Below are positions 1,776 to 13,250 of a stretch of DNA of 50,155 nt, piece by piece. A program made the position numbers and the translations under genes. Position 1 is the stretch's first letter; every line of letters begins with the position of its first letter. Source of the stretch: Candidatus Zhuqueibacterota bacterium (GTDB lineage Bacteria; Zhuqueibacterota; Zhuqueibacteria; Zhuqueibacterales; Geothermadaptataceae); contig WFVT01000032.1 of assembly GCA_015491485.1 (NCBI GenBank), positions 1 to 50,155 on the forward strand. Direction: 5' to 3'. The notes beneath the pieces are model-generated. The model worked only from the letters and a program-made list of their open reading frames with translations. It was not told where the DNA came from and searched no databases.

Positions 1776-4700
1776 CTATGTCAGCTCTTTTACCAGCGCC
1801 TGCAATGCCGGATTCAGTTTTTTGATTTCATCCTCAAGCACCACACTGACTTCTTCCGCCTTTTCCAGATTGCCTTCTTTTGCCAATTGCTCCAGCTTGT
1901 AAGCAAGATCATAGGCTCTCTGGGCGCTGAATGTACCGACAGAGCCTTTCAAGCTGTGAGCCGCACGGGAAAGCGCTTCCGCATCTTTGTTTTCCAGCGC
2001 TTCCCGGATGTGTTGTAACATTTCTGGACTGGTTTCCAGAAAAATGCTGACCAGCTCCTCCAGCAGTTCCTTGTCCCCCGCCACACCCTCTAAAACGGCC
2101 TCTGGATCCAGCAAGTCCGTTCTTCCTTGAGTAGATTCGGTCATGGCGTTTTCCTCACGGTTGGTTTGATTTAGAATACGATCGATTTCTTTAAACAAAT
2201 TTTCTTTGCGAATGGGTTTGGTTGCGTATCCATCCATTCCAGCCTGTATGCATCGTTCTTCGTCCCCTTTCATTGCGTGGGCGGTGAGCGCAATGATTGG
2301 AATATGGCCGCCGCGTTCTTTTTCCAGGTTTCGAATGATTTGCGTGGCTTCAATACCGCCCATTTCCGGCATCTGTACGTCCATGAGGATCAGATCGAAC
2401 GGTTTCTTTTGCCACAGCTCAACCGCCTCGCGGCCATTTTCAGCAACCTCCACCTCATAACCATGTTTTTCCAGCAAGCGTTTTGCCAGTTTCTGGTTCA
2501 CCGCGTTATCCTCTGCTAATAATATTCGGAGTTTTTTCTCGGATGCATGAGTGCTGTTGGCAATTTCGTCCCATTTTGCCGCCTGAACCGCCTGCTCATC
2601 TGCATCCCCATCGATGACCCGTATTTGAGGTTGACTGACGACACGGATAATTTCATTAAACAAATCCGACGGACGGATGGGTTTTAAAAGGTATGCCGAA
2701 ATGCCGAGTTCCTGACATTTTTGGATGACATCTTTTTGCATGGTCAGGGGCAGCATCATAATGATTTCCGGCGGAGATACGCTTTCATGCTGCTGGTAGA
2801 GGTCCCGGATTTGTCGGACTAACTCAAAGCCGTCCATGTCCGGCATTTTGGCATCGACCAATAATACATGGATCGGTTTTTGATGGCGCAGAGCCGCTTC
2901 GACCCATTTGAGGAGCGTATGAGCATCGTTGGCCAATTGCGGTTGTATGCGCCAGCTCAGCAGGATTTTTCCGATGACCTGCAAACTTCTGCGGTGATCA
3001 TCGACCACCATGACGTTGAGCCGGGTTAAGGCCTCCGCGTACTGTTCCGGATCGTGCTCTTTTTCAGCGCTCTGCTGAACTTGAAACGGAATGACGAATT
3101 GAAATTGACTCCCCACACCGACTTGCGAGGTCACCCAGATGGTTCCTCCCATAAGCTCAACGAGCTGCTTGCAGATCGCAAGGCCGAGTCCCGTGCCGCC
3201 GAACTTCCGCGTGGTGGAGCCGTCCGCCTGCGTGAAGGCGTCAAAAATGACTTTTAATTTGTCTTCAGGGATCCCGATCCCGGAATCGGCAACTTTGAAG
3301 TAAATCAGCTCGGTGTCAGCCTGCGTCTGCGTTCGATGGTAAACGGATTTGATCCGTTCCAGAAGGTCAGATGAAATTCCGGATAGATTGATGTCATCCG
3401 GAAAGTGGCGAATTTGCAGACATTCTAAGACGACTTCGCCCTCTTGTGTAAATTTTATGGCATTGGAAATCAAGTTCATTAAGATCTGCTGCAGCCGATA
3501 CGGATCGCCGACAATGATTTCCGGCAGATAGGGATCGGTGTAATAGACAAATTCCAGCCCCTTCTCCTCGGTTTTGAGAGCAAATGTTTTTACCACATCC
3601 GACAGATGGGCTTTCAGGGAAAACGGAATCATTTCCAGGTCCAGTTTACCCGCCTCAATTTTCGAGAAATCCAGAATATCGTTGATGATATTGAGCAGGG
3701 TGTTGGACGACTGCTGCACGAGCTGCAAATATTCCCGCTGTTCATCATTGAGATCCGTTTCCAGCACAAGATCGGTCATGCCGATAATGGCATTCATGGG
3801 CGTTCGGATTTCATGACTCATATTGGCCAGGAACTCCGATTTCAGCCGTGCAGCCTGATTGGCATGATCCCGGGCGATCTCCAACTCGCGCCGCAATTTG
3901 ACTTCATCTTCAATGGTTTTCATTTCCACCGACAGCTCAGGGTTGCCGCCGGGATCGCGTTTGATCGGGCGAATGGTAAAGATACTGGGGATATAGCCGC
4001 GTCGGGGATTGTGCAACTGCAGTTCGGTTCGGAAATAGCCCTCCTGTAATACCACATCCAGACCGGTGGATATTTTTTGCAAATCCTCGCTTTTGAAAAT
4101 CGGTAGCTCCGTAATGCGTTTATTTTGAATGGTATCCAAAGAAAGACCGGTAAAATTCAAAAAACTATTGTTGGCAATCAGAATCTTCCCCTGGGGATCA
4201 ACTTTGAGAATGAAGGTGTCCAGGCTGTTGATCCATTCTTGGATTTCCCGCTGGCTTTGATTCAGCAGCTCGTAGAATTTCTTTTGTTCAAATAAAATGT
4301 AGCCAAAGAAAAGCACCGCTACACAGAACAGTAAGATAAAAATGCCCCCGACCAAATAATTGGTCTTCTTGATTTGGTGCAGGACGGCCGAATGGGGAAT
4401 GGAAAAAACGAAACCAATAGGCTCGTCCCAGATTTGAATGGGCGTGTAGGCGGCAACAAATTTTTCCTGGGTCAGTGCATCGCCGTTGTCCGTTCGTGCG
4501 TAAAAGTGCGTTATGCCGTCAAATCCCTGTTTGAGATCATCAAAAAAGCGGCTCAATCCCGGGCTGTTTTCTTCCGGGAAAAAGTTTTCAGAACTGAGGA
4601 TGGTCTGATTGGTGGCAAAATTATACACCCACACTTTCAGGTTTAAATCCAGAAGAAAATTTTTGAAACTGTTTAAAAACAGCGTTTGAGGCGAAAGCAC

Positions 4701-5225
4701 CAACACGACGTTGCTCAGCGTGTACTGATTGCGGCGAACCGGCTTGAGGTAGGCCGGACGTTTGCCGGATTCGGTGCCGACCTGAATTTTGAAATGCTCG
4801 GATATTTCACGAAACGGCAGGCGGTTATCCTTTTTGCGCCTGGAGCCAGCAATATGAAAATAGTTGTTCTCATCTTTGCGGATTTCCAGCAGCACGCTGT
4901 CCGGCGTGTACCAGTAAATGGCTTCAAGCCAGTCTTCGTATTTCGAAAAAAAACGCCCGAGCTGGCGCTGCACTTCAAATCGATCGCCGTCTTCGAAAAT
5001 CACCAGCTCTGTGAGATAGTCCAGATCCGTATGGACGTCCTGGTGCCTTAGCATCAGCCGTTCGCGGGCAAACTGCGCCTGACGGAGCAAGCGGCTGCCG
5101 GTTTGTTGCAGGGCTTTGGAATGAATGCTGATCAGAAACTGATAGCCCCCATAAATAATCGCCCCTGCAATCAGCAGAAAAAGGGTAACGAGAAAGCGCG
5201 TGTTTATAGGCCTCGGAGTTGCCAT
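1776..5225 (-). CDS. Hybrid sensor histidine kinase (periplasmic sensor, PAS, HisKA, HATPase, 2x REC, Hpt)
   Basis: Two TM helices. H-box FLANMSHEIRTPMN, N-box NLISNAIKFT, G-boxes DSGIGI and FGGTGLGL. Two REC domains (LLVDAKMP; ILMDVQMP). Hpt motif AHSLKGS. Confidence 0.95.
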   Translation of the reverse strand: MATPRPINTRFLVTLFLLIAGAIIYGGYQFLISIHSKALQQTGSRLLRQAQFARERLMLRHQDVHTDLDYLTELVIFEDGDRFEVQRQLGRFFSKYEDWLEAIYWYTPDSVLLEIRKDENNYFHIAGSRRKKDNRLPFREISEHFKIQVGTESGKRPAYLKPVRRNQYTLSNVVLVLSPQTLFLNSFKNFLLDLNLKVWVYNFATNQTILSSENFFPEENSPGLSRFFDDLKQGFDGITHFYARTDNGDALTQEKFVAAYTPIQIWDEPIGFVFSIPHSAVLHQIKKTNYLVGGIFILLFCVAVLFFGYILFEQKKFYELLNQSQREIQEWINSLDTFILKVDPQGKILIANNSFLNFTGLSLDTIQNKRITELPIFKSEDLQKISTGLDVVLQEGYFRTELQLHNPRRGYIPSIFTIRPIKRDPGGNPELSVEMKTIEDEVKLRRELEIARDHANQAARLKSEFLANMSHEIRTPMNAIIGMTDLVLETDLNDEQREYLQLVQQSSNTLLNIINDILDFSKIEAGKLDLEMIPFSLKAHLSDVVKTFALKTEEKGLEFVYYTDPYLPEIIVGDPYRLQQILMNLISNAIKFTQEGEVVLECLQIRHFPDDINLSGISSDLLERIKSVYHRTQTQADTELIYFKVADSGIGIPEDKLKVIFDAFTQADGSTTRKFGGTGLGLAICKQLVELMGGTIWVTSQVGVGSQFQFVIPFQVQQSAEKEHDPEQYAEALTRLNVMVVDDHRRSLQVIGKILLSWRIQPQLANDAHTLLKWVEAALRHQKPIHVLLVDAKMPDMDGFELVRQIRDLYQQHESVSPPEIIMMLPLTMQKDVIQKCQELGISAYLLKPIRPSDLFNEIIRVVSQPQIRVIDGDADEQAVQAAKWDEIANSTHASEKKLRILLAEDNAVNQKLAKRLLEKHGYEVEVAENGREAVELWQKKPFDLILMDVQMPEMGGIEATQIIRNLEKERGGHIPIIALTAHAMKGDEERCIQAGMDGYATKPIRKENLFKEIDRILNQTNREENAMTESTQGRTDLLDPEAVLEGVAGDKELLEELVSIFLETSPEMLQHIREALENKDAEALSRAAHSLKGSVGTFSAQRAYDLAYKLEQLAKEGNLEKAEEVSVVLEDEIKKLNPALQALVKELT

Positions 5226-6220
5226 AAAGTCCAACCCAATTCATCGATTTTTGCCGACATGATGGAATACACTTCCCCTGCAATCGATAGCACAACGTCT
5301 CGCCGGTTTTGCTGAATCACGGCTTCGGCGACCTCCCGGATTTCTCGAGTTGGGCTTTTCAGTAAATTAAATTGCTCCGACCGGAAGGTATTTGAACGAA
5401 TAGTGGCAATGTATTTATGATTCACCAGGGGAGGAAGCCGCAGGATTTTGGCTCCCTGTTCCTCGGTCGCAATCACCAGACCTTCATGATCAACGATCAG
5501 GAAGATGCCGTCCTCGGAATTCAAATACCGGTCGGCAATGTTTTTGATGGTGACATCGATGCCGGCGACGCCCACAAATTGATTTTTGACGTACACCGGT
5601 GCGATCGTGGAAACCGTCCAGCCGCGCCCGGCGGGATCCACATACGGCTTGTTGATCCACAGGCTTTTGCGTTCCGGGTTATGCTGTTCATCCGCCAGAT
5701 AAAAGAAATTGAATTGCCGCACGTCAAGTTTGGGCTCGAATACCATCAGCACATCAAAGTAAGGGTAGATGCGGCAGAAACTTTCGGGATCATTGAAATA
5801 GATTTGACTGACTTCAGGGTAAATATCCACCACCGGCTTCATGAATAAATCAAAAAATTCTGTGAAACGCGCACGGGCACGGATGCGATCGTCCACGGGA
5901 ACGGCTCCGGACACGAACAGTGCGGATCCACCGTCATCTTCGGGCTTGTACAGCACCGTTTTTTCATACATGGCATATTTGGATCGGGTGAGTCCGTCTC
6001 GAAGCCGGTTTTGATTTTCATAAATCCCGCGAATATAATGACTGTAAAATTCCACCATTTTTCGGATGTGGAAAAAATCCCGATTGATCTGAGAGGCGAT
6101 ATTTTCCAGTTCAAAAAGTAAATGATTATCCTGATCTTTTGCCTGATTTTGGGAGCATTGCCAGGCAACCATCGTGACGAAGAAAAACAGAAGTGCGGAT
6201 TTTAACCGTTTCATGATCAT
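5204..6220 (-). CDS. Stand-alone dCache-domain extracytoplasmic (lipo)protein
   Basis: Signal peptide ending AWQC. Cache motifs WINKPYVDPAGRGWTVSTIAPVY...GVAGID...FLIVDHEG...LGWTL. No second TM helix or output domain. 3' end overlaps the kinase start. Confidence 0.8.
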   Translation of the reverse strand: MIMKRLKSALLFFFVTMVAWQCSQNQAKDQDNHLLFELENIASQINRDFFHIRKMVEFYSHYIRGIYENQNRLRDGLTRSKYAMYEKTVLYKPEDDGGSALFVSGAVPVDDRIRARARFTEFFDLFMKPVVDIYPEVSQIYFNDPESFCRIYPYFDVLMVFEPKLDVRQFNFFYLADEQHNPERKSLWINKPYVDPAGRGWTVSTIAPVYVKNQFVGVAGIDVTIKNIADRYLNSEDGIFLIVDHEGLVIATEEQGAKILRLPPLVNHKYIATIRSNTFRSEQFNLLKSPTREIREVAEAVIQQNRRDVVLSIAGEVYSIMSAKIDELGWTLWQLRGL

Positions 6221-6572: not shown

Positions 6573-9092
6573 TCAATATTTTGCCAGCAGGCGCGCCGCC
6601 CGCACGATGTGTTCCGGGCTGACAAGAAATGCTTCTTCCAGTGGCGGACTGTACGGCACGGGCGTGTCCAGCGCGCCGAGCACGCGCACCGGCGCATCCA
6701 GATATTCAAACGCCTCTTCGGCTATCATCGACGCGATAGATTGCCCGATGCCGCCGGTTTTGCTGTCTTCCTGTACAATGAGCACCTTGCCGGTTTTTTT
6801 GGCGCTCCACAAAATCGCCGTGCGGTCCAGCGGTTGGATGGAGCGCAGATCCAGCACCAGGCACTGAAGGCCGTCTTCGGCTTCCAGTTGCCGGGTGGCC
6901 TCGAGACAGCGATGCACGTAGGCACCGTACGTGATGATGGTCAGGTCGGAACCGTCGCGCTTTAGATGCGCCCGGCCGATGGGCAGCAGCCGATCCGCAT
7001 CTGCAGGCGGCAAGTCTTCTTTAATGTTGGCGGCGCGGTACAGCGCGATGTGCTCGTAAAACAACACCGGATTATCATCCCGGATCGCGGCTTTGAGCAA
7101 TGCCTTGGCTTCGCGGGGCGTGGATGGGCAGACGATTTTGAGTCCCGGTGTGCGGAAAAACCACGGTTCGGTGTTCTGTGAATGGTACGGGCCGGCCTGC
7201 CGCAGTCCGCCCCACGGCATGCGGACCGTCATCGGCACCGGATGATGCCAGCGGTAGTAAATTTTTGCTGCATTGTTGACCAACTGATTAAAGCCGCTGG
7301 CGACAAAATCGTTGAACTGGATTTCCGCCACCGGGCGCTTGCCCATAAGCGCCGCGCCGGTGGCCGCCCCGATGATCGCGGACTCAGCCAGCGGTGTGTT
7401 CAGCAGTCGGTCTCCGAATTTATCCAGAAGCGATTTGAGAATGACAAAGGCATTGCCATACTTGCCGCCAACGTCTTCTCCAAGAATGAACACATCCGGA
7501 TCGCGGCGCATCTCCTCCTCCAGCGCCTCAACGATCGCCTGCCAGAAGGTTTTTCCTTTTGGATCGGGGGTGAAACCAACCGGTTCATCGCTGTGCCAGT
7601 CCGGTATATCCGGAAATACCGATGTGCGGTTTTCGAGCGGTTCCACGTGCACTGCAGGTACTCCGTCGGTGAATACCGGGTGGCCTGCCAGTGAAACTTT
7701 GGGCCATTCCGCCTGTTTGACGCGTTCAGCCGCCGCTTCGATTTCGGCTTCCACTTCGGATATCATCCGAGCAATCTCGCTCTCCGTCAGCAGGTTTTCC
7801 CGAAGGAGCTTTTCGCGATAGCGGGCGATCGGATCTTTGCGCCGCCAGTATGCATATTTTTCCGCATCCACATAGCCGCCATCGCGGATGTCGGGATATT
7901 CCAGAAACTGGTCGGGTTCGTGGCCGAAGTACAGCATATCATCGTGGTGGGCATGCCCGCACATGCGCATACAAACCAGCTCCACCATCACCGGGCCCTC
8001 CCCGCGGCGGCAGGCTTCGGCGGCTTCGGTAACGGCGGCAAAGACCGCTTCCGGATCGGTGCCATCGACGGTGATGCCACGGATGCCGTAGCCCCTGGCA
8101 CGCTCGGCCAGCCGCTCGCAGGCGAACTGCTCGTTGACCGGCGTCGAAAGCGCGGTTTGATTGTTCTGCAAGACATACACGATGGGCATTTTCTGCACGG
8201 CAGCAAAATTGATCGCTTCGTGCCATTCGCCGGCGGAGGTGGCGCCCTCGCCGTTGCAATTGATGACCACCCGTCCCGTGCCTTTCAGCGCCAGGCCGAT
8301 ACCGCAGGTGGTGCCGGTGCTGATGGCGATGGGCGCGGCCGGCGGCAACACCCCGATATCAAAATCGCCGATGTGCAGGTCTTTGCCCTGGGTAGGAACG
8401 CCCGGTTTCCCCATTTGTGCGGCCATCACGTCGTAGGGCTCCAGCCCCATGGCCAGCGCCAGCCCCAGATCACGGATCATCGGCGCCACGATGTCGCCGG
8501 TGTAGCGGCCGTTGTCCCGGTACCGTTCGCCGCGGTGCAGCCGGATGCCGGCGGCGTAAATCGCTTCCTGGCCCATGGACCGGAATCCCTTGCCCTGAAA
8601 CGGAGTGCCGTCCGGTAGCTTGATTTCATTACTGGCAAAAAATTTTTTCAATCGGGCATCCAGATAGCGGGTGCGGAGCATGCCGCGCAGAATTTCGATT
8701 TTCTCCTGTGGTGTCAGACTGGCGCGCAGCCGCAGCCGCTCAAAAGCCGCCCGGATGTCAGCTTGCAAGCCATGCAGAAACCGTTCACGTATGTTGACGG
8801 CGGACAGCATGGGGACGACTTCTTTTTTTTGCCAGGCGGTGGGAATTCGATTCAGAAGTTCTGGAAGGCGGTTCACGAAGTGATCTTCAGTTTGCTGGAG
8901 TGCCGAAGCCGTCATTCGGCCGGGCTGCCGTGCCAAAAGCTCTTGCAACTCCTGAAACAAAGCGCCGGCAGCGGCGGGAACGATTTGAAACAGCGTCTGA
9001 TGCAGCTCGAGCAAAATATCCGATTTGGCAAAACGCGGAGAAGATGCTTTCTTTTTCGGTTTGCGTGTGCGGGCTTTATTCTGGATGGCCAT
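6573..9092 (-). CDS. 2-oxoacid dehydrogenase E1, fused alpha/beta subunits (TPP-dependent)
   Basis: GQEA motif, TPP motif GEGATSAGEWHEAINFAA...QNN, then E1beta motifs GEDVG, NTPLAES, EIQFNDF, HSQ, and transketolase C-terminal domain DLRSIQPLD. Confidence 0.92.
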   Translation of the reverse strand: MAIQNKARTRKPKKKASSPRFAKSDILLELHQTLFQIVPAAAGALFQELQELLARQPGRMTASALQQTEDHFVNRLPELLNRIPTAWQKKEVVPMLSAVNIRERFLHGLQADIRAAFERLRLRASLTPQEKIEILRGMLRTRYLDARLKKFFASNEIKLPDGTPFQGKGFRSMGQEAIYAAGIRLHRGERYRDNGRYTGDIVAPMIRDLGLALAMGLEPYDVMAAQMGKPGVPTQGKDLHIGDFDIGVLPPAAPIAISTGTTCGIGLALKGTGRVVINCNGEGATSAGEWHEAINFAAVQKMPIVYVLQNNQTALSTPVNEQFACERLAERARGYGIRGITVDGTDPEAVFAAVTEAAEACRRGEGPVMVELVCMRMCGHAHHDDMLYFGHEPDQFLEYPDIRDGGYVDAEKYAYWRRKDPIARYREKLLRENLLTESEIARMISEVEAEIEAAAERVKQAEWPKVSLAGHPVFTDGVPAVHVEPLENRTSVFPDIPDWHSDEPVGFTPDPKGKTFWQAIVEALEEEMRRDPDVFILGEDVGGKYGNAFVILKSLLDKFGDRLLNTPLAESAIIGAATGAALMGKRPVAEIQFNDFVASGFNQLVNNAAKIYYRWHHPVPMTVRMPWGGLRQAGPYHSQNTEPWFFRTPGLKIVCPSTPREAKALLKAAIRDDNPVLFYEHIALYRAANIKEDLPPADADRLLPIGRAHLKRDGSDLTIITYGAYVHRCLEATRQLEAEDGLQCLVLDLRSIQPLDRTAILWSAKKTGKVLIVQEDSKTGGIGQSIASMIAEEAFEYLDAPVRVLGALDTPVPYSPPLEEAFLVSPEHIVRAARLLAKY

Positions 9093-9312
9093 GGATCTTT
9101 CCCTTACGTATCGTTGATGATGCTGTCAATACGAAACATCACTCATGCGTGCCGGAACCAAACGAATCTATTCCATAATATAAGCGACGCAAATCGTGAA
9201 TGCAAAACAAACTCACGGAACCGCTGTCTCAGTGGTTCCGCAGTGCTTGACTTGTGAAGGGCAGAGAATTAATTTGCAACCGTTGAAAGCAAACATCGGT
9301 TCGGTCAATGAA

Positions 9313-10494
9313 ATGAACGATGACGTTCTAATCAAACGATTGCAGACCCACCTGGAAAAATTGTCGGTGGATTTCCCCCATCGGGGAAGCTGCACCCTCA
9401 ATGAAGGCATGGCGCAGAGCTATTGCGCCGAAGTGCTGCGATCGCTCGGTCTGAAACCCGAGGCGCAGGAATTCAGAAGTGTGGCTTCGGCTTACCGGCC
9501 GTTTATTCTGGCCTCAGCGCTGCTATTATTGACCTATCCGCTTTTCCAATGGATGCCGCTCGCCGCCGGCCTGCTTGCTGCGGCGGTGACGATCTCCGCA
9601 TTGATGGAATTGATGTTGATGCCGAATTTACTGACCTTGATCCTGCCGAAAAGCAACAGCCGCAACCTGATCGTGCGCATACCGGCCGGACGGGAAAGCA
9701 GGCGAATCCTGGTGGTGATGAGCCACATCGATTCCCACCGTACCCCGTGGATTTTCCGTACACCGACCACGTTTCGAGTGTATCAGCTTCTGAGCACGAT
9801 GGCCATGCTTGCCTTTGTCGGATTGCCGGTGCTGTATGGACTGGACCTTCTGGGCGTCTTAGATCTAAGCGGGATTTATGCCGCGCCCGCCCTCGCTCTC
9901 ATCGCCGTGATTTTTTTTATGACTCTCCAGGCCGAACATTCACCTTACACCGCCGGCGCCAATGACAATGCCTCGGGAGTGGCGCTGCTACTGGAACTGG
10001 CGCGGCGCTTCCGCGCAAAGCCGCTGGAGTATCAGGACGTCTGGTTGGTTATCAGCGGTTGTGAAGAAGTCGGCGCGCACGGGGCGCGCGCGTTCGTGAA
10101 GCGCTATGGCAAAGAGCTACGCGACGCCGTGGTTCTGGTGATCGACAATATTGCCGGCAAAGACACGGTTCCGTGTTATTATGAAAAAGAAACCATGCTC
10201 CTGCCGATGAAATATCCTTCGAATATGTTGGCTCTTGCCCGCGAGGTGGCGGAAGCCCATCCGGCGTTTGGCGCACGGCCCTTTTCACAGCGGGGGGCAT
10301 ATACCGACGGCACTCCGGTGTTGCAAGCCGGTCTTGCCTGCATCAGCATTGTCAACCATACCGCTTCCGGCTGGATACCCTATTGGCATCACCCGGACGA
10401 TACCCTGAGTCATATCGATTGGGAAGCCTATCACCGCAGTATCGGTTTCATTTTGAAGCTCATCGAGCGGCTGGAAAAACAGGCGGCGACGTGA
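9313..10494 (+). CDS. M28-family metallopeptidase with internal membrane segments
   Basis: Zn-ligand motifs SHIDS, GANDNASGVA, GCEE, IDN, YWHHPDD, with hydrophobic inserts. Confidence 0.85.
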   Translation: MNDDVLIKRLQTHLEKLSVDFPHRGSCTLNEGMAQSYCAEVLRSLGLKPEAQEFRSVASAYRPFILASALLLLTYPLFQWMPLAAGLLAAAVTISALMELMLMPNLLTLILPKSNSRNLIVRIPAGRESRRILVVMSHIDSHRTPWIFRTPTTFRVYQLLSTMAMLAFVGLPVLYGLDLLGVLDLSGIYAAPALALIAVIFFMTLQAEHSPYTAGANDNASGVALLLELARRFRAKPLEYQDVWLVISGCEEVGAHGARAFVKRYGKELRDAVVLVIDNIAGKDTVPCYYEKETMLLPMKYPSNMLALAREVAEAHPAFGARPFSQRGAYTDGTPVLQAGLACISIVNHTASGWIPYWHHPDDTLSHIDWEAYHRSIGFILKLIERLEKQAAT

Positions 10495-10928
10495 AAGCCG
10501 CTGGTTTTTGTTCTGAGCGGTCGAGGGATAGTTTGAGGAAAAGATGCGAGCCAGTATATCTCATTGAATTCAAATTGAAACAGCGGCGATCCGGAACGTT
10601 TTGATGAATCCGTCGGCTGTCCCAAATCCGCCGGTAGAAATGGGATGCCGGGCCATGGAGCTATCGCGCCGCTTTTCGGACACCGTATTACTGCTCGGCC
10701 AATCGCTTGCCGGGATGGCGGCTGGTTAAAACCATTTCAATATGCTGGATATTGGCAGGGCCCAAAACAGAATCTTCCGGAATCGGCGGTTTCCGCAAAG
10801 TGGGGGGCGGGCGCGAAAACAAATATCGGCGGGTTCCTCTTTTACCGAAATGGCGTTGTATGAAGCTTACGGGGGCGTCCCCGGGGATTTTCACGTTCCG
10901 CAAATCCAAACCATTGTGCGGAGGAGCT

Positions 10929-13250
10929 ATGGCACGGAGATGGAAAACGACCGGACTCTGGCTTGCGGTGGCCGGATTTGTATTCTGGGTGCTGATCTAT
11001 GCCCCGCTACCGGGACTGGAAACGCCGCCGGCCGCTATCGGCTGGAGCAGCGAAGATGAAGCGGCACGCATCCAAGAAAATCAGCTTGCTCGCTTCGATG
11101 AAATCCGCAAAGCACGCAATCTGCAGCGCCCGTTTCCTCAGATGATCGTCCGCAGCGATAACCCCACCACTCCGGAGAAAGTCGAACTGGGCCGGCTGTT
11201 GTATTTTGATCCCATCCTGTCGGGCGATAATGACCTGTCGTGCGCGCACTGCCACCATCCCGATCTCGGGTTTTCCGATAACCGGGGGGTGTCCATGGGG
11301 CGTGGAGGCAAGGGCATCGGCCCGGAGCGCCGGGGCGGCGCCGTGCTGCGGCGCGGCTCGCCCACCATCTGGAATGCGGCGTACAACCATGCCCAATTCT
11401 GGGACGGTCGGGCACGTGATCTCGAGGATCAGGCACGAAGTCCCATTCAGGACAGCCAGGAAATGGCGCAGGACAGCTCCGAACTGGTGCAGGAACTCCG
11501 CGCCATTCCCGAATATGTGGCGCTGTTTCAAAACGCTTTCGGCGGCGAAGCAGCCGAAGCCGTGACTTTTCAGAACGTGGTGTACGCCATCGCCGCATTT
11601 GAACGCACCATTATCAGCAACAATTCGCGGTTCGATCGCTATGCGCGCGGCGAACACGATGCACTGTCACCGGCAGAACGCCGCGGTCTCAATGTGTTCC
11701 GTTCGCTGAAAACCCGCTGTTTCGAATGCCATAACTTTCCTACCTTCGCCAATCCGGATTTCAAAGTGATCGGTGTGCCGGATTTGCCGGGACAGGAGCC
11801 GGATTTAGGGCGGGGAGAAATCGACGGGCCCGCTTATAATCGCGCCTTTAAAGTACCGACCCTGCGCAATGTGGCTCTTACTGCGCCTTACATGCACAAC
11901 GGTGTGTTTCAAACCCTGGAGGAAGTGATCGATTTTTACGCCGGCGGTGGTGGGCGTGGACTCGGACTCGATATTCCCAACATCGATGACAAAATCCGTG
12001 CGTTTGGTATCACCGAACAGGAAAAGCAGGATCTGATCGCTTTTTTGCATGCGCTGACCGACGAGTCCAACAAGCCGGAAATCCCCGACCGCGTCCCTTC
12101 CGGGCTGCCGGTGGTGCCACGGTTGCAAAACCAATCGCCGGAGCTGGCGGCGTTTCAGCAGCAAAAGCATCCACGCAAGCGGGTGCGGCTGCAGCGGGTG
12201 GGACGGCGCATTATCGTTCGCCCGGGACAGTCGATTCAGGCCGGTATCGATATGGCGACAGCGGGCGACACGGTTTGGGTGATGCCCGGTGTGTATCATG
12301 AAACGCTGACCCTGGACGTCTCCGGCATCACCTTGCTGGGGCAGGTGGTGGACGGCCAGCGGCCGGTGCTCGACGGCCGGAACGTGCTTGCGGATGGCCT
12401 CATCGGCTCCGGCAGTGATGTGGAAATCCGGAATTTCGTGGTGCGAAATTACACCGCCAACGGCCTGATGTTGAATGGAGCGGTCAATGTCACATTTCGT
12501 GACCTGCTTTGTGAAAATCCCGGGCTGTATGGGGTCTATCCCGTAGAATGCGTCAATGTGCTCATCGAACGCTGTGAAGTTACCGGTGCGCGGGATGCAG
12601 GCATTTACGTGGGGCAATCGAGGGACATCGTCGTGCGCGATTCCAGGGCTTACGGCAATGTTACCGGTATTGAAATTGAAAACTGCGTGAATGCGCTGGT
12701 GGAAAACAACGAGGCATTCAACAACGCCGGCGGTATTCTGGTGTTTTTGTTGCCGAACAATCCATCCAAAGTGTCGCTGAAAACCCGGGTCGTCAACAAC
12801 CGGATTTACAGCAACAACCATGTGAATTTTGCTGATCCGAACGCCATTGTCAGTAAAGTGCCTTCCGGTAGTGGACTGCTGATTCTGGCGGCGGATGAAG
12901 TGGAAGCCACCGGCAATGAAATCCGCGACAACCGGTCTTTCGGCCTGGCCGTGATCGGACTGGATATGGTGTTCGGACCGGGCGCGCGGTATGACGTGGA
13001 TCCGATTCCCGAACGCAACTGGTTCCACGGCAACCGGTATGAAAATAACGGTTTTGCTCCTCAGGGCATGATCGAGGAACTGGGATTTAAAGGCAAGGAC
13101 ATCATCTGGGATTTGAGCGGTTATGACAATAGCTGGGATGAGCCGGGCGCCAGCAGCATGCCTGCGGTGCTGCCGAAGAAATCCTGGCCGGATCTGGTGC
13201 GGCGGGCCAACTGGCGGTTCTGGCGGCTTTTAATGCGGCTCATGGGCTGA
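10929..13250 (+). CDS. Di-haem MauG/cytochrome c peroxidase-family protein fused to a C-terminal parallel beta-helix domain
   Basis: GGAGGAG RBS, N-terminal TM/signal. [48 protein letters not shown]...DFY. Then beta-helix repeats (GLYGVYPV...[15 protein letters not shown]...GIEIEN...GGILVFLLP). Confidence 0.9.

Follow-up and report, generated by a model that had tools for sequence, protein, structure and literature searches.

What does an enzyme of the MauG type oxidise when its partner is part of its own chain? The question is raised by an open reading frame (ORF; P0001) in contig WFVT01000032.1 of a Candidatus Zhuqueibacterota bacterium (assembly GCA_015491485.1), of which the whole 50,155-nucleotide stretch analysed is referred to below as the window. 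In this ORF a di-haem domain of the bacterial cytochrome c peroxidase (bCcP)/MauG type is followed by a parallel beta-helix of the TIGR03805 family. Our analysis demonstrates that such fusions form a large and widespread enzyme family, a variant of the known MauG-type enzymes, and the reading that we tentatively favour, with a probability of about 0.4, is that of a peroxide-driven oxidase that uses a His/Tyr haem to oxidise a ligand bound at a conserved patch of the beta-helix. To our knowledge, substrates are known for only a few MauG-type di-haem enzymes, identification of the partner being the hard step, and BthA still has none. Here one construct carries both oxidant and target, and long-range oxidation from haem to substrate is therefore directly testable; in addition, the fusion provides a first functional handle on a beta-helix family that recurs in association with c-type cytochromes. 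Our literature searches found no publication on a MauG/beta-helix fusion or on the function of TIGR03805, and the main text of the BthA paper (PMC6405878) contains none of the words 'fusion', 'fused' and 'helix', while its supplementary sequence table may include the family. The relatives listed in our searches bear only the database names 'parallel beta-helix domain-containing protein' or 'cytochrome c peroxidase'.

The di-haem domain

11151..12083, + strand: bCcP/MauG-type di-haem domain, about residues 75-385 (PF03150, 1e-56; TIGR04039 and TIGR03791 match residues 75-386 below their cut-offs; Foldseek)
11241..11255, + strand: first CxxCH, CAHCH (C105-H109), of the peroxidatic haem; invariant, as are H110, P111 and D112
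11400..11402, + strand: inter-haem Trp158 in QFWDGR (156-161); invariant (66/66), with a role as described in passages of PMC11892367
11718..11732, + strand: second CxxCH, CFECH (C264-H268), of the electron-transfer haem; invariant
11937..11939, + strand: Tyr337 (TAC), predicted to be the sixth ligand to the second haem; MauG has Tyr294 here and bCcPs have their Met

The Pfam model PF03150 matched residues 82-243 with 192.1 bits (cut-off 25.6), and across the fused relatives both CxxCH motifs, W158, E178, F336 and Y337 are invariant (66/66). A tyrosine likewise occupies column 337 in all 113 short relatives that cover it, the other 7 of 120 stopping before it. Residues 298-338 align without gaps to residues 255-295 of the MauG chain, placing Tyr337, the last residue of the segment PYMHNG...IDFY (320-337), on MauG Tyr294; MbnH (6e1c) also has a Tyr at the equivalent position, and in the alignment with MacA (4aal) Tyr337 occupies the Met column, the His/Met pair of canonical bCcPs being absent. 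The initial annotation, drawn up from the letters of the window, had named both CxxCH motifs, the Trp of QFWDGR and a Tyr at this very codon, and had counted Met rather than Tyr in a structural alignment as a refutation. The positions were confirmed exactly, the sequence alignment came out in favour of Tyr, and the assignment to the His/Tyr (MauG) type is supported at the sequence level. In the passages of PMC11892367 that treat the superfamily, His-Tyr as opposed to His-Met ligation sets the MauG-type enzymes apart from the canonical ones, the former are said to take H2O2 as their oxidant and to reach the Fe(IV)Fe(IV)=O state, and the inter-haem Trp and a calcium site are described as usually retained.

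At the position of the bCcP distal His the protein has an Arg, its activation loop carries an insertion, and the canonical distal-His feature is thus missing. Among the 66 relatives K, R or L usually stands here, His is outside the four commonest residues, and in 3 of them a His is found one position beside it. The residues of the peroxide pocket are kept (E178 in 66/66, Q168 in 63/66 and P172 in 55/66). Because the pocket is conserved and no distal His ligand is present, the first haem should be five-coordinate and reactive towards H2O2.

Comparison with characterised enzymes places the domain between known groups. With MauG (PDB 3L4M; root-mean-square deviation (rmsd) 3.7 A) it shares two c-type haems, the inter-haem Trp, the Tyr at the Tyr294 position, the PYMHNG motif and the lack of a conserved distal His, whereas its sequence is distant (1e-29; 223.2 bits against the cut-off of 443.85 for the MauG equivalog TIGR03791) and its partner is a covalently fused beta-helix instead of preMADH; the window showed no mau genes around the fusion gene. 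MbnH, which acts with MbnP (PDB 6E1C), is the closest locally around the Tyr ligand (5e-11, followed by MauG with 4e-10), has the lowest rmsd (2.9 A), matches the whole domain at 1e-42 and likewise has a dedicated partner; however, the MbnH model TIGR04039, with 242.5 bits, stays under its cut-off of 362.85, and the partner has another fold. The canonical bCcPs (CcpA, 3HQ6; MacA, 4AAL) are the best matches in sequence and in the fold search with the full model (E 2e-21), and they share the pocket Glu and Gln as well as calcium-site-like residues, whereas the fusion protein has Tyr for Met, no activation-loop distal His, a loop insertion and a C-terminal beta-helix. BthA from Burkholderia (PDB 6NX0) is, according to passages of PMC6405878, a His/Tyr di-haem enzyme, yet it is distant in sequence (1e-16), has no beta-helix and, according to passages of PMC11892367, is without the inter-haem Trp and the calcium site, of which Trp158 and calcium-site-like residues are kept in the fusion protein. 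No entry in the fold search of the PDB spans both the haem domain and the beta-helix.

The resemblance to canonical bCcPs, which extends to whole-domain sequence and fold, would suit an ordinary periplasmic peroxidase that detoxifies H2O2 and in which the beta-helix only provides a scaffold, anchors the protein in the envelope or docks the electron donor. The fusion gene is the only PF03150 gene found in its own genome (92% complete), and a Tyr-to-His variant of BthA retains peroxidase activity (passages of PMC6405878). Nevertheless, the change from Met to Tyr is invariant, the distal-His position is mostly occupied by K, R or L, MauG-type members are poor peroxidases in the passages cited from PMC11892367, and the conserved polar patch of the beta-helix described below implies a specific ligand. 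We therefore regard simple detoxification as rather improbable.

Distribution of the fused and split forms

A word-indexed search scored 7999 clusters, 2941 of them at E <= 0.001, and all 120 best relatives listed (59-100% identity) contain both Pfam domains; a cultivable carrier, Haliangium ochraceum, has a copy (P0108) with 60% identity. On contigs representing one genome per species, relatives were found in 201 of the 242 candidate stretches, and of the 80 loci that were kept, which cover at least 12 phyla, 65 have a single ORF of 720-900 amino acids. The loci derive from Poribacteria, Marinimicrobia, Calditrichia, Acidobacteriota, Planctomycetota, Armatimonadota and Verrucomicrobiota, and further from Sumerlaeota, Chloroflexota, Myxococcota, Nitrospirales, Deferribacteres and Pseudomonadota. 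In 167 genomes of the bacterium's own phylum, 11 TIGR03805 matches exceeded the cut-off (one of them in G158, an unpublished genome), all within long open frames, of which ten comprise 779-870 amino acids and one, cut off by the contig end at the start of a short contig, 496. An assembly chimera, named in the initial annotation as a possible refutation, was ruled out by the two-domain make-up of 120/120 listed relatives, by the 65/80 single-ORF loci and by these 11 open frames.

At other loci (L084, from a Halioglobus metagenome-assembled genome (MAG), L071, L087, L092 and L093, Myxococcota included) the two parts are encoded by adjacent split genes with the haem gene leading; the pairs of L084 and L071 were confirmed by NCBIfam, and a haem ORF is present at L070. 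As seen from the C-termini of short relatives, the haem subunits of the split forms terminate just past VPSGLPV, a motif of the linker between the two domains. Since fused and adjacent split forms both exist, the fusion is supported as a true Rosetta-stone link, in agreement with what the initial annotation had proposed. In an unrooted tree of 72 haem domains the phyla are mostly found together (15 label changes against a minimum of 12), and the state of being split changes twice.

Some loci contain a further beta-helix gene next to the fused one. At L089 a free beta-helix paralogue (10187-11449) without a cytochrome domain follows the fused gene and exceeds the TIGR03805 cut-off, and at L064 a second beta-helix-like ORF (10485-11633) with Pfam matches to Beta_helix and NosD lies 3' of it. 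Similar ORFs were assigned by ORF clustering only at L066 (10379-11527), L085 (9974-11554, overlapping the end of the fused gene) and L051 (13446-14798). The second ORFs of L064, L066, L085 and L051 encode 382-526 amino acids and, like that of L089, have no cytochrome domain; all five loci belong to Planctomycetota and Sumerlaeota.

The beta-helix, its conserved patch and its modelled docking

12084..12233, + strand: linker, residues 386-435, with the conserved VPSGLPV motif; P386 and S391 invariant, V389 and P390 nearly so
12237..13070, + strand: TIGR03805 parallel beta-helix, residues 437-714 (hidden Markov model (HMM), AlphaFold2 model, Foldseek)
12528..12683, + strand: polar/aromatic patch on three successive rungs (Y534, Y537, D556, Y560, Q563, S564, E582, E584, N585), invariant or nearly so
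13071..13247, + strand: C-terminal cap with W727-D728, then a Trp/Arg-rich helix, residues 755-772 (AlphaFold2); only W727 and D728 invariant

The presence of a TIGR03805-like beta-helix in the same ORF, as first annotated, was borne out by an NCBIfam score of 235.3 bits against a cut-off of 141.5 (238.1 in the genome search) and by 62.4 bits for Pfam PF13229. AlphaFold2 predicted the beta-helix, from 75 sequences, with a mean local confidence (pLDDT) of 94.6 and a predicted template-modelling score (pTM) of 0.92, and the full-length protein with values of 90.1 and 0.87. The nearest structures in Foldseek are the A-modules of the mannuronan epimerases AlgE4 and AlgE6 (E 2.6e-8, TM-score 0.57), followed by alginate and PL6 lyases, RbmB and GH28 enzymes. 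In a profile search of PDB sequences the N-terminal cap alone was matched, weakly, and this cap motif is common to PL6 lyases and pectinesterases; in the ESM Atlas the matches were all unnamed clusters of beta-helices standing alone. The Pfam, NCBIfam and PDB profile searches revealed no known redox cofactor motif in the beta-helix. With CASH-type enzymes (AlgE4 A-module, PL6, GH28, NosD) the domain thus shares the right-handed parallel beta-helix and acidic and aromatic residues on successive rungs, while the TM-scores are only 0.3-0.57 and the NosD models remain under their cut-off; the AlgE catalytic set was not identified at this fold level.

Invariant positions of the beta-helix and its cap in the fused family are Q437, Y456, Y534, Y537, D556, A557, Y560, G562, V578, G580, E582, E584, N585, N599, G602, N624, N629, N630, G647, D656, N663, N668, N702, W727, D728 and G731. 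From the register of the strands, Y534/Y537, then Y560, then E582/E584 probably share a sheet on three successive rungs, and we propose that the patch is a ligand-binding or active site. PL6 lyases bind calcium by an Asn and two Glu of adjacent rungs, and GH28 enzymes have three carboxylates in a like position.

In the wider family, a profile search over 1.84 billion representatives yielded 1043 members at E <= 1e-30, of which the best 149 were classified, one protein of 5481 amino acids being left out. In agreement with the early remark that this beta-helix is usually a separate gene, 115 of the 149 are without a cytochrome; an N-terminal cytochrome c peroxidase (CCP)/MauG domain is found in 14 (8 complete, 6 fragments), two C-terminal CxxCH motifs of the SO2930-type di-haem are found in 11, and one C-terminal CxxCH is found in 9. 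In the two-CxxCH class P0176 and P0199 exceed the cut-off of TIGR03806, the SO2930 family, and in the one-CxxCH class P0150 lies over and P0144 just under the cut-off for class I cytochrome c. Residues Y534, D556, Y560, E582, E584, N585 and N599 and the Asn positions are kept across all four architecture classes, and the patch therefore appears to be one common functional site that has repeatedly been wired to c-type cytochromes. Among further members, P0128 (884 amino acids) is a tandem double TIGR03805 beta-helix, the giant P0242 (5481 amino acids) has 13 matched stretches, and in P0220 (808 amino acids) the beta-helix is fused to a choice-of-anchor V/MXYO-CTERM-type domain.

Union of one beta-helix family with three unrelated cytochrome modules would also be expected of a peroxide-independent dehydrogenase, in which the beta-helix, perhaps metal-bound, is catalytic and the haems only carry electrons from it to the respiratory chain or in the opposite direction. 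The conservation of the patch regardless of the cytochrome partner is in line with this possibility, as is a class I cytochrome c gene located 14-36 nucleotides upstream on the same strand at four Anaerolineae loci. A mere relay, however, would have no need of the retained E178 and Q168 and of the five-coordinate design, the His/Tyr haem is of low potential and a poor relay to oxidases (according to passages of PMC11892367), and the beta-helix searches found no redox cofactor motif. Such a dehydrogenase seems to us a doubtful explanation, about on a par with the detoxifying peroxidase.

For docking, the haem domain (alignment of 72 rows) was modelled with two haems and, as a chain of its own, the beta-helix (alignment of 75 rows), in three runs together with three controls. 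The complex scored 0.78 (0.77-0.79 among the runs) and the best control 0.00; solved complexes reach this mark in 58 of 80 cases and mismatched pairs in 2 of 110, a calibration that is only rough here because our own alignments were used and haem was carried along. At least 85% of the contacts were shared between runs, and the pLDDT of the partner was at least 89. On the haem side the modelled interface consists of helix 248-261, preceding the second CxxCH, and of residues 316-319 and 328-331, preceding Tyr337, and on the side of the beta-helix of rungs 459-519 together with L533 and Y534, the latter at the edge. These models support docking of the beta-helix on the half of the haem domain with the predicted Tyr-ligated haem; the fold search returned no similar solved complex. 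The interface positions D441, D463, D489, N511 and 514 are specific to the class with a CCP partner; the first four are conserved there and differ in the SO2930 class, which has the same beta-helix family and the same patch, likewise in fused form, with an unrelated C-terminal cytochrome. This pattern fits a partner-specific surface that adjoins a family-wide site.

The initial annotation had suggested a self-modifying system in which the haem domain installs an oxidative cofactor or a metal site on the beta-helix, with the Trp-rich C-terminus as a candidate target. In general form, the haem domain would act once on its own beta-helix and create a protein-derived cofactor or metal site from Tyr or Trp, and the mature beta-helix would then be the working enzyme. 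The models for such a reaction are MauG acting on preMADH and MbnH acting on MbnP. Consistent with this alternative, the haem domain belongs by sequence to the His/Tyr type, and the characterised His/Tyr members of known substrate all oxidise a partner protein, as stated in passages of PMC11892367. Moreover, the candidate targets Tyr534, at the modelled interface, and Tyr560 are strictly conserved and W727 is invariant, a free beta-helix paralogue lies just downstream in some planctomycete loci, and the beta-helix is the sole evident partner, no MbnP-like (TIGR04052) gene having been found in the genome at 92% completeness. Neither was an SO2930-family gene found there, and the fusion gene is its sole TIGR03805 match. 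However, for a maturase that acts only once it is costly to be joined to its target for good at 1:1, and mono-haem cytochromes c, to which the same beta-helix family is also fused, are incapable of peroxide activation. Because the beta-helix is joined to mono-haem and SO2930-type cytochromes alike, electron transfer during turnover fits better than a single act of maturation. The C-terminus fares poorly as a target: of the five Trp in the last 47 residues only W727 is invariant, while W736 is kept in 55, W753 in 47, W765 in 43 and W762 in 23 of the 66 relatives, and none of the five appears in the model's list of interface residues. A copper or thiol site also loses ground, as none of the Cys, His and Met residues of the beta-helix is invariant among the fused relatives. 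Self-maturation is in our view unlikely, even if a relay-only role, a plain peroxidase and copper handling are less likely still.

In the last of these, a NosD- or MbnPH-like function, the beta-helix would bind or pass on copper after oxidative tailoring. NosD models do match weakly (PF05048 with 38 bits, TIGR04247 with 49.5 bits), MbnH is a close structural relative, and at two related Myxococcales loci a gene similar to lytic polysaccharide monooxygenases (LPMO_10/BIM1-like) lies 10 nucleotides downstream of the beta-helix gene. The TIGR04247 score is nevertheless far under the cut-off of 300, the conserved Cys, His and Met expected of a copper site are lacking, neither nos nor mbn genes were found in the neighbourhood and no MbnP-like gene in the genome, and the LPMO-like neighbour accounts for just 2 of the 63 close same-strand neighbours. 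We consider copper handling highly improbable.

A proposed peroxide-driven oxidase and its genomic setting

According to the reading that we favour, the peroxide-driven oxidase, the protein would be an oxidoreductase of the periplasm, complete in itself and anchored in the membrane by its N-terminal helix. The first haem, five-coordinate without a distal His and with its peroxide pocket conserved, would react with H2O2, the oxidising equivalent would be shared with the His/Tyr haem via W158, and a bis-Fe(IV)-type oxidant should form by analogy with MauG, MbnH and BthA. Electrons would then be withdrawn over a long range, through the Tyr-ligated haem, from a ligand at the docked Tyr/Asp/Glu/Asn patch, which in the model begins at the edge of the interface, and the reducing substrate would be oxidised there in catalytic turnover. 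Because of the fold relatives and the Tyr/Asp/Glu/Asn make-up of the patch, a glycan chain would be the most likely substrate, with a carboxylate-bound metal ion as second choice. If a role in oxidative turnover of polymers or metals proves true, it would be of ecological importance given the spread of the family, whose carriers are often heterotrophs of the sea and the soil (among them Marinimicrobia, Poribacteria, Planctomycetota, Acidobacteriota, Verrucomicrobiota and Chloroflexota). A bolder version, which we put forward as a speculation with little probability, is that TIGR03805 beta-helices constitute an unrecognised class of cytochrome-coupled redox enzymes, and that here a bis-Fe(IV) module oxidises a glycan at D556/E582/E584 via Y534/Y537/Y560. 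The protein would then be a counterpart of lytic polysaccharide monooxygenases that is driven by haem and needs no copper, and the glycan site might also hold a Tyr-derived cofactor installed by the haem domain.

Several observations weigh against the oxidase. The solved sequences closest to the whole haem domain, Geobacter CcpA and MacA (1e-56), are canonical peroxidases, and ligation by Tyr337 is predicted from the alignment only. TM-scores of 0.5-0.57 for the beta-helix indicate a shared fold only, and the catalytic residues of AlgE epimerases, given as Tyr149, Asp152, His154 and Asp178 in passages of PMC7385640, were not mapped onto the patch in this fold-level comparison. A known carbohydrate-enzyme mechanism is unsupported because the beta-helix has no invariant His. 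The mono-haem fusions and the upstream cytochromes of the four Anaerolineae loci would fit plain electron transfer in a respiratory chain equally well. Finally, docking is a weak test for domains that are covalently joined, since contact is likely in any case.

The remaining features of the gene are as follows.

10929..13250, + strand: whole ORF (P0001), 773 amino acids plus stop; frame open, length in line with relatives of 737-828 amino acids
10920..10926, + strand: Shine-Dalgarno-like GGAGGAG, 2 nucleotides 5' of the ATG, read from the sequence
10932..11000, + strand: N-terminal hydrophobic helix, residues 2-24 (AlphaFold2 helix), putative signal anchor or signal peptide

The start at 10929 is preferred over an upstream TTG at 10707 because of the length of the relatives. 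Attachment of c-type haem requires export, and the N-terminal helix, as a probable signal anchor or signal peptide, would place the protein in the periplasm. A scan for promoters and terminators gave nothing relevant to the fusion gene that exceeded the expectation from shuffled sequence. The neighbours within the window are housekeeping genes, namely those for a membrane M28 peptidase (+), Maf (-), an asparaginase (-), an aminopeptidase P (-) and a fused E1 dehydrogenase (-). The M28-family peptidase (9196-10494, +), separated from the fusion gene by a gap of about 430 nucleotides on its upstream side, has a long hydrophobic N-terminal half and is likely embedded in the membrane. The ORF at 6573-9092 (-) encodes 839 amino acids that combine an E1 alpha-like part (E1_dh) and an E1 beta-like part (Transket_pyr, Transketolase_C) in a single 2-oxoacid dehydrogenase chain.

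All-against-all clustering of neighbour ORFs over 81 places (the 80 loci and the window) revealed no conserved partner gene, the best neighbour cluster occurring in 11 of the 81, and the Pfam tally of the 63 close same-strand neighbours contained lineage-specific families only. One such neighbour is a protein of about 800 amino acids with CotH, Lamin-tail-domain and FlgD_ig-like parts, encoded 13-118 nucleotides downstream of the fused gene at nine loci (L025, at 3106-5505, L026, L031, L033, L034, L035, L038, L061 and L068) and confined to a marine lineage comprising Marinimicrobia and unclassified marine MAGs. The small class I cytochrome c genes of the Anaerolineae are located at L074:7387-7800, L075:7425-7796, L076:2890-3270 and L078:7385-7819, and L073 and L085 have similar-sized ORFs with no Pfam match. 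The LPMO_10/BIM1-like genes (L092:8862-9560 and L093:9027-9728, same strand, 233-234 amino acids) belong to split-form loci and represent a possible link to copper or oxidative polysaccharide chemistry; the ORF downstream at L071 showed no relation to the LPMO-like gene of L092. At a Thermoanaerobaculia locus, a truncated-globin-like (Bac_globin) gene (L029:7441-7827) lies 78 nucleotides upstream of the fused gene.

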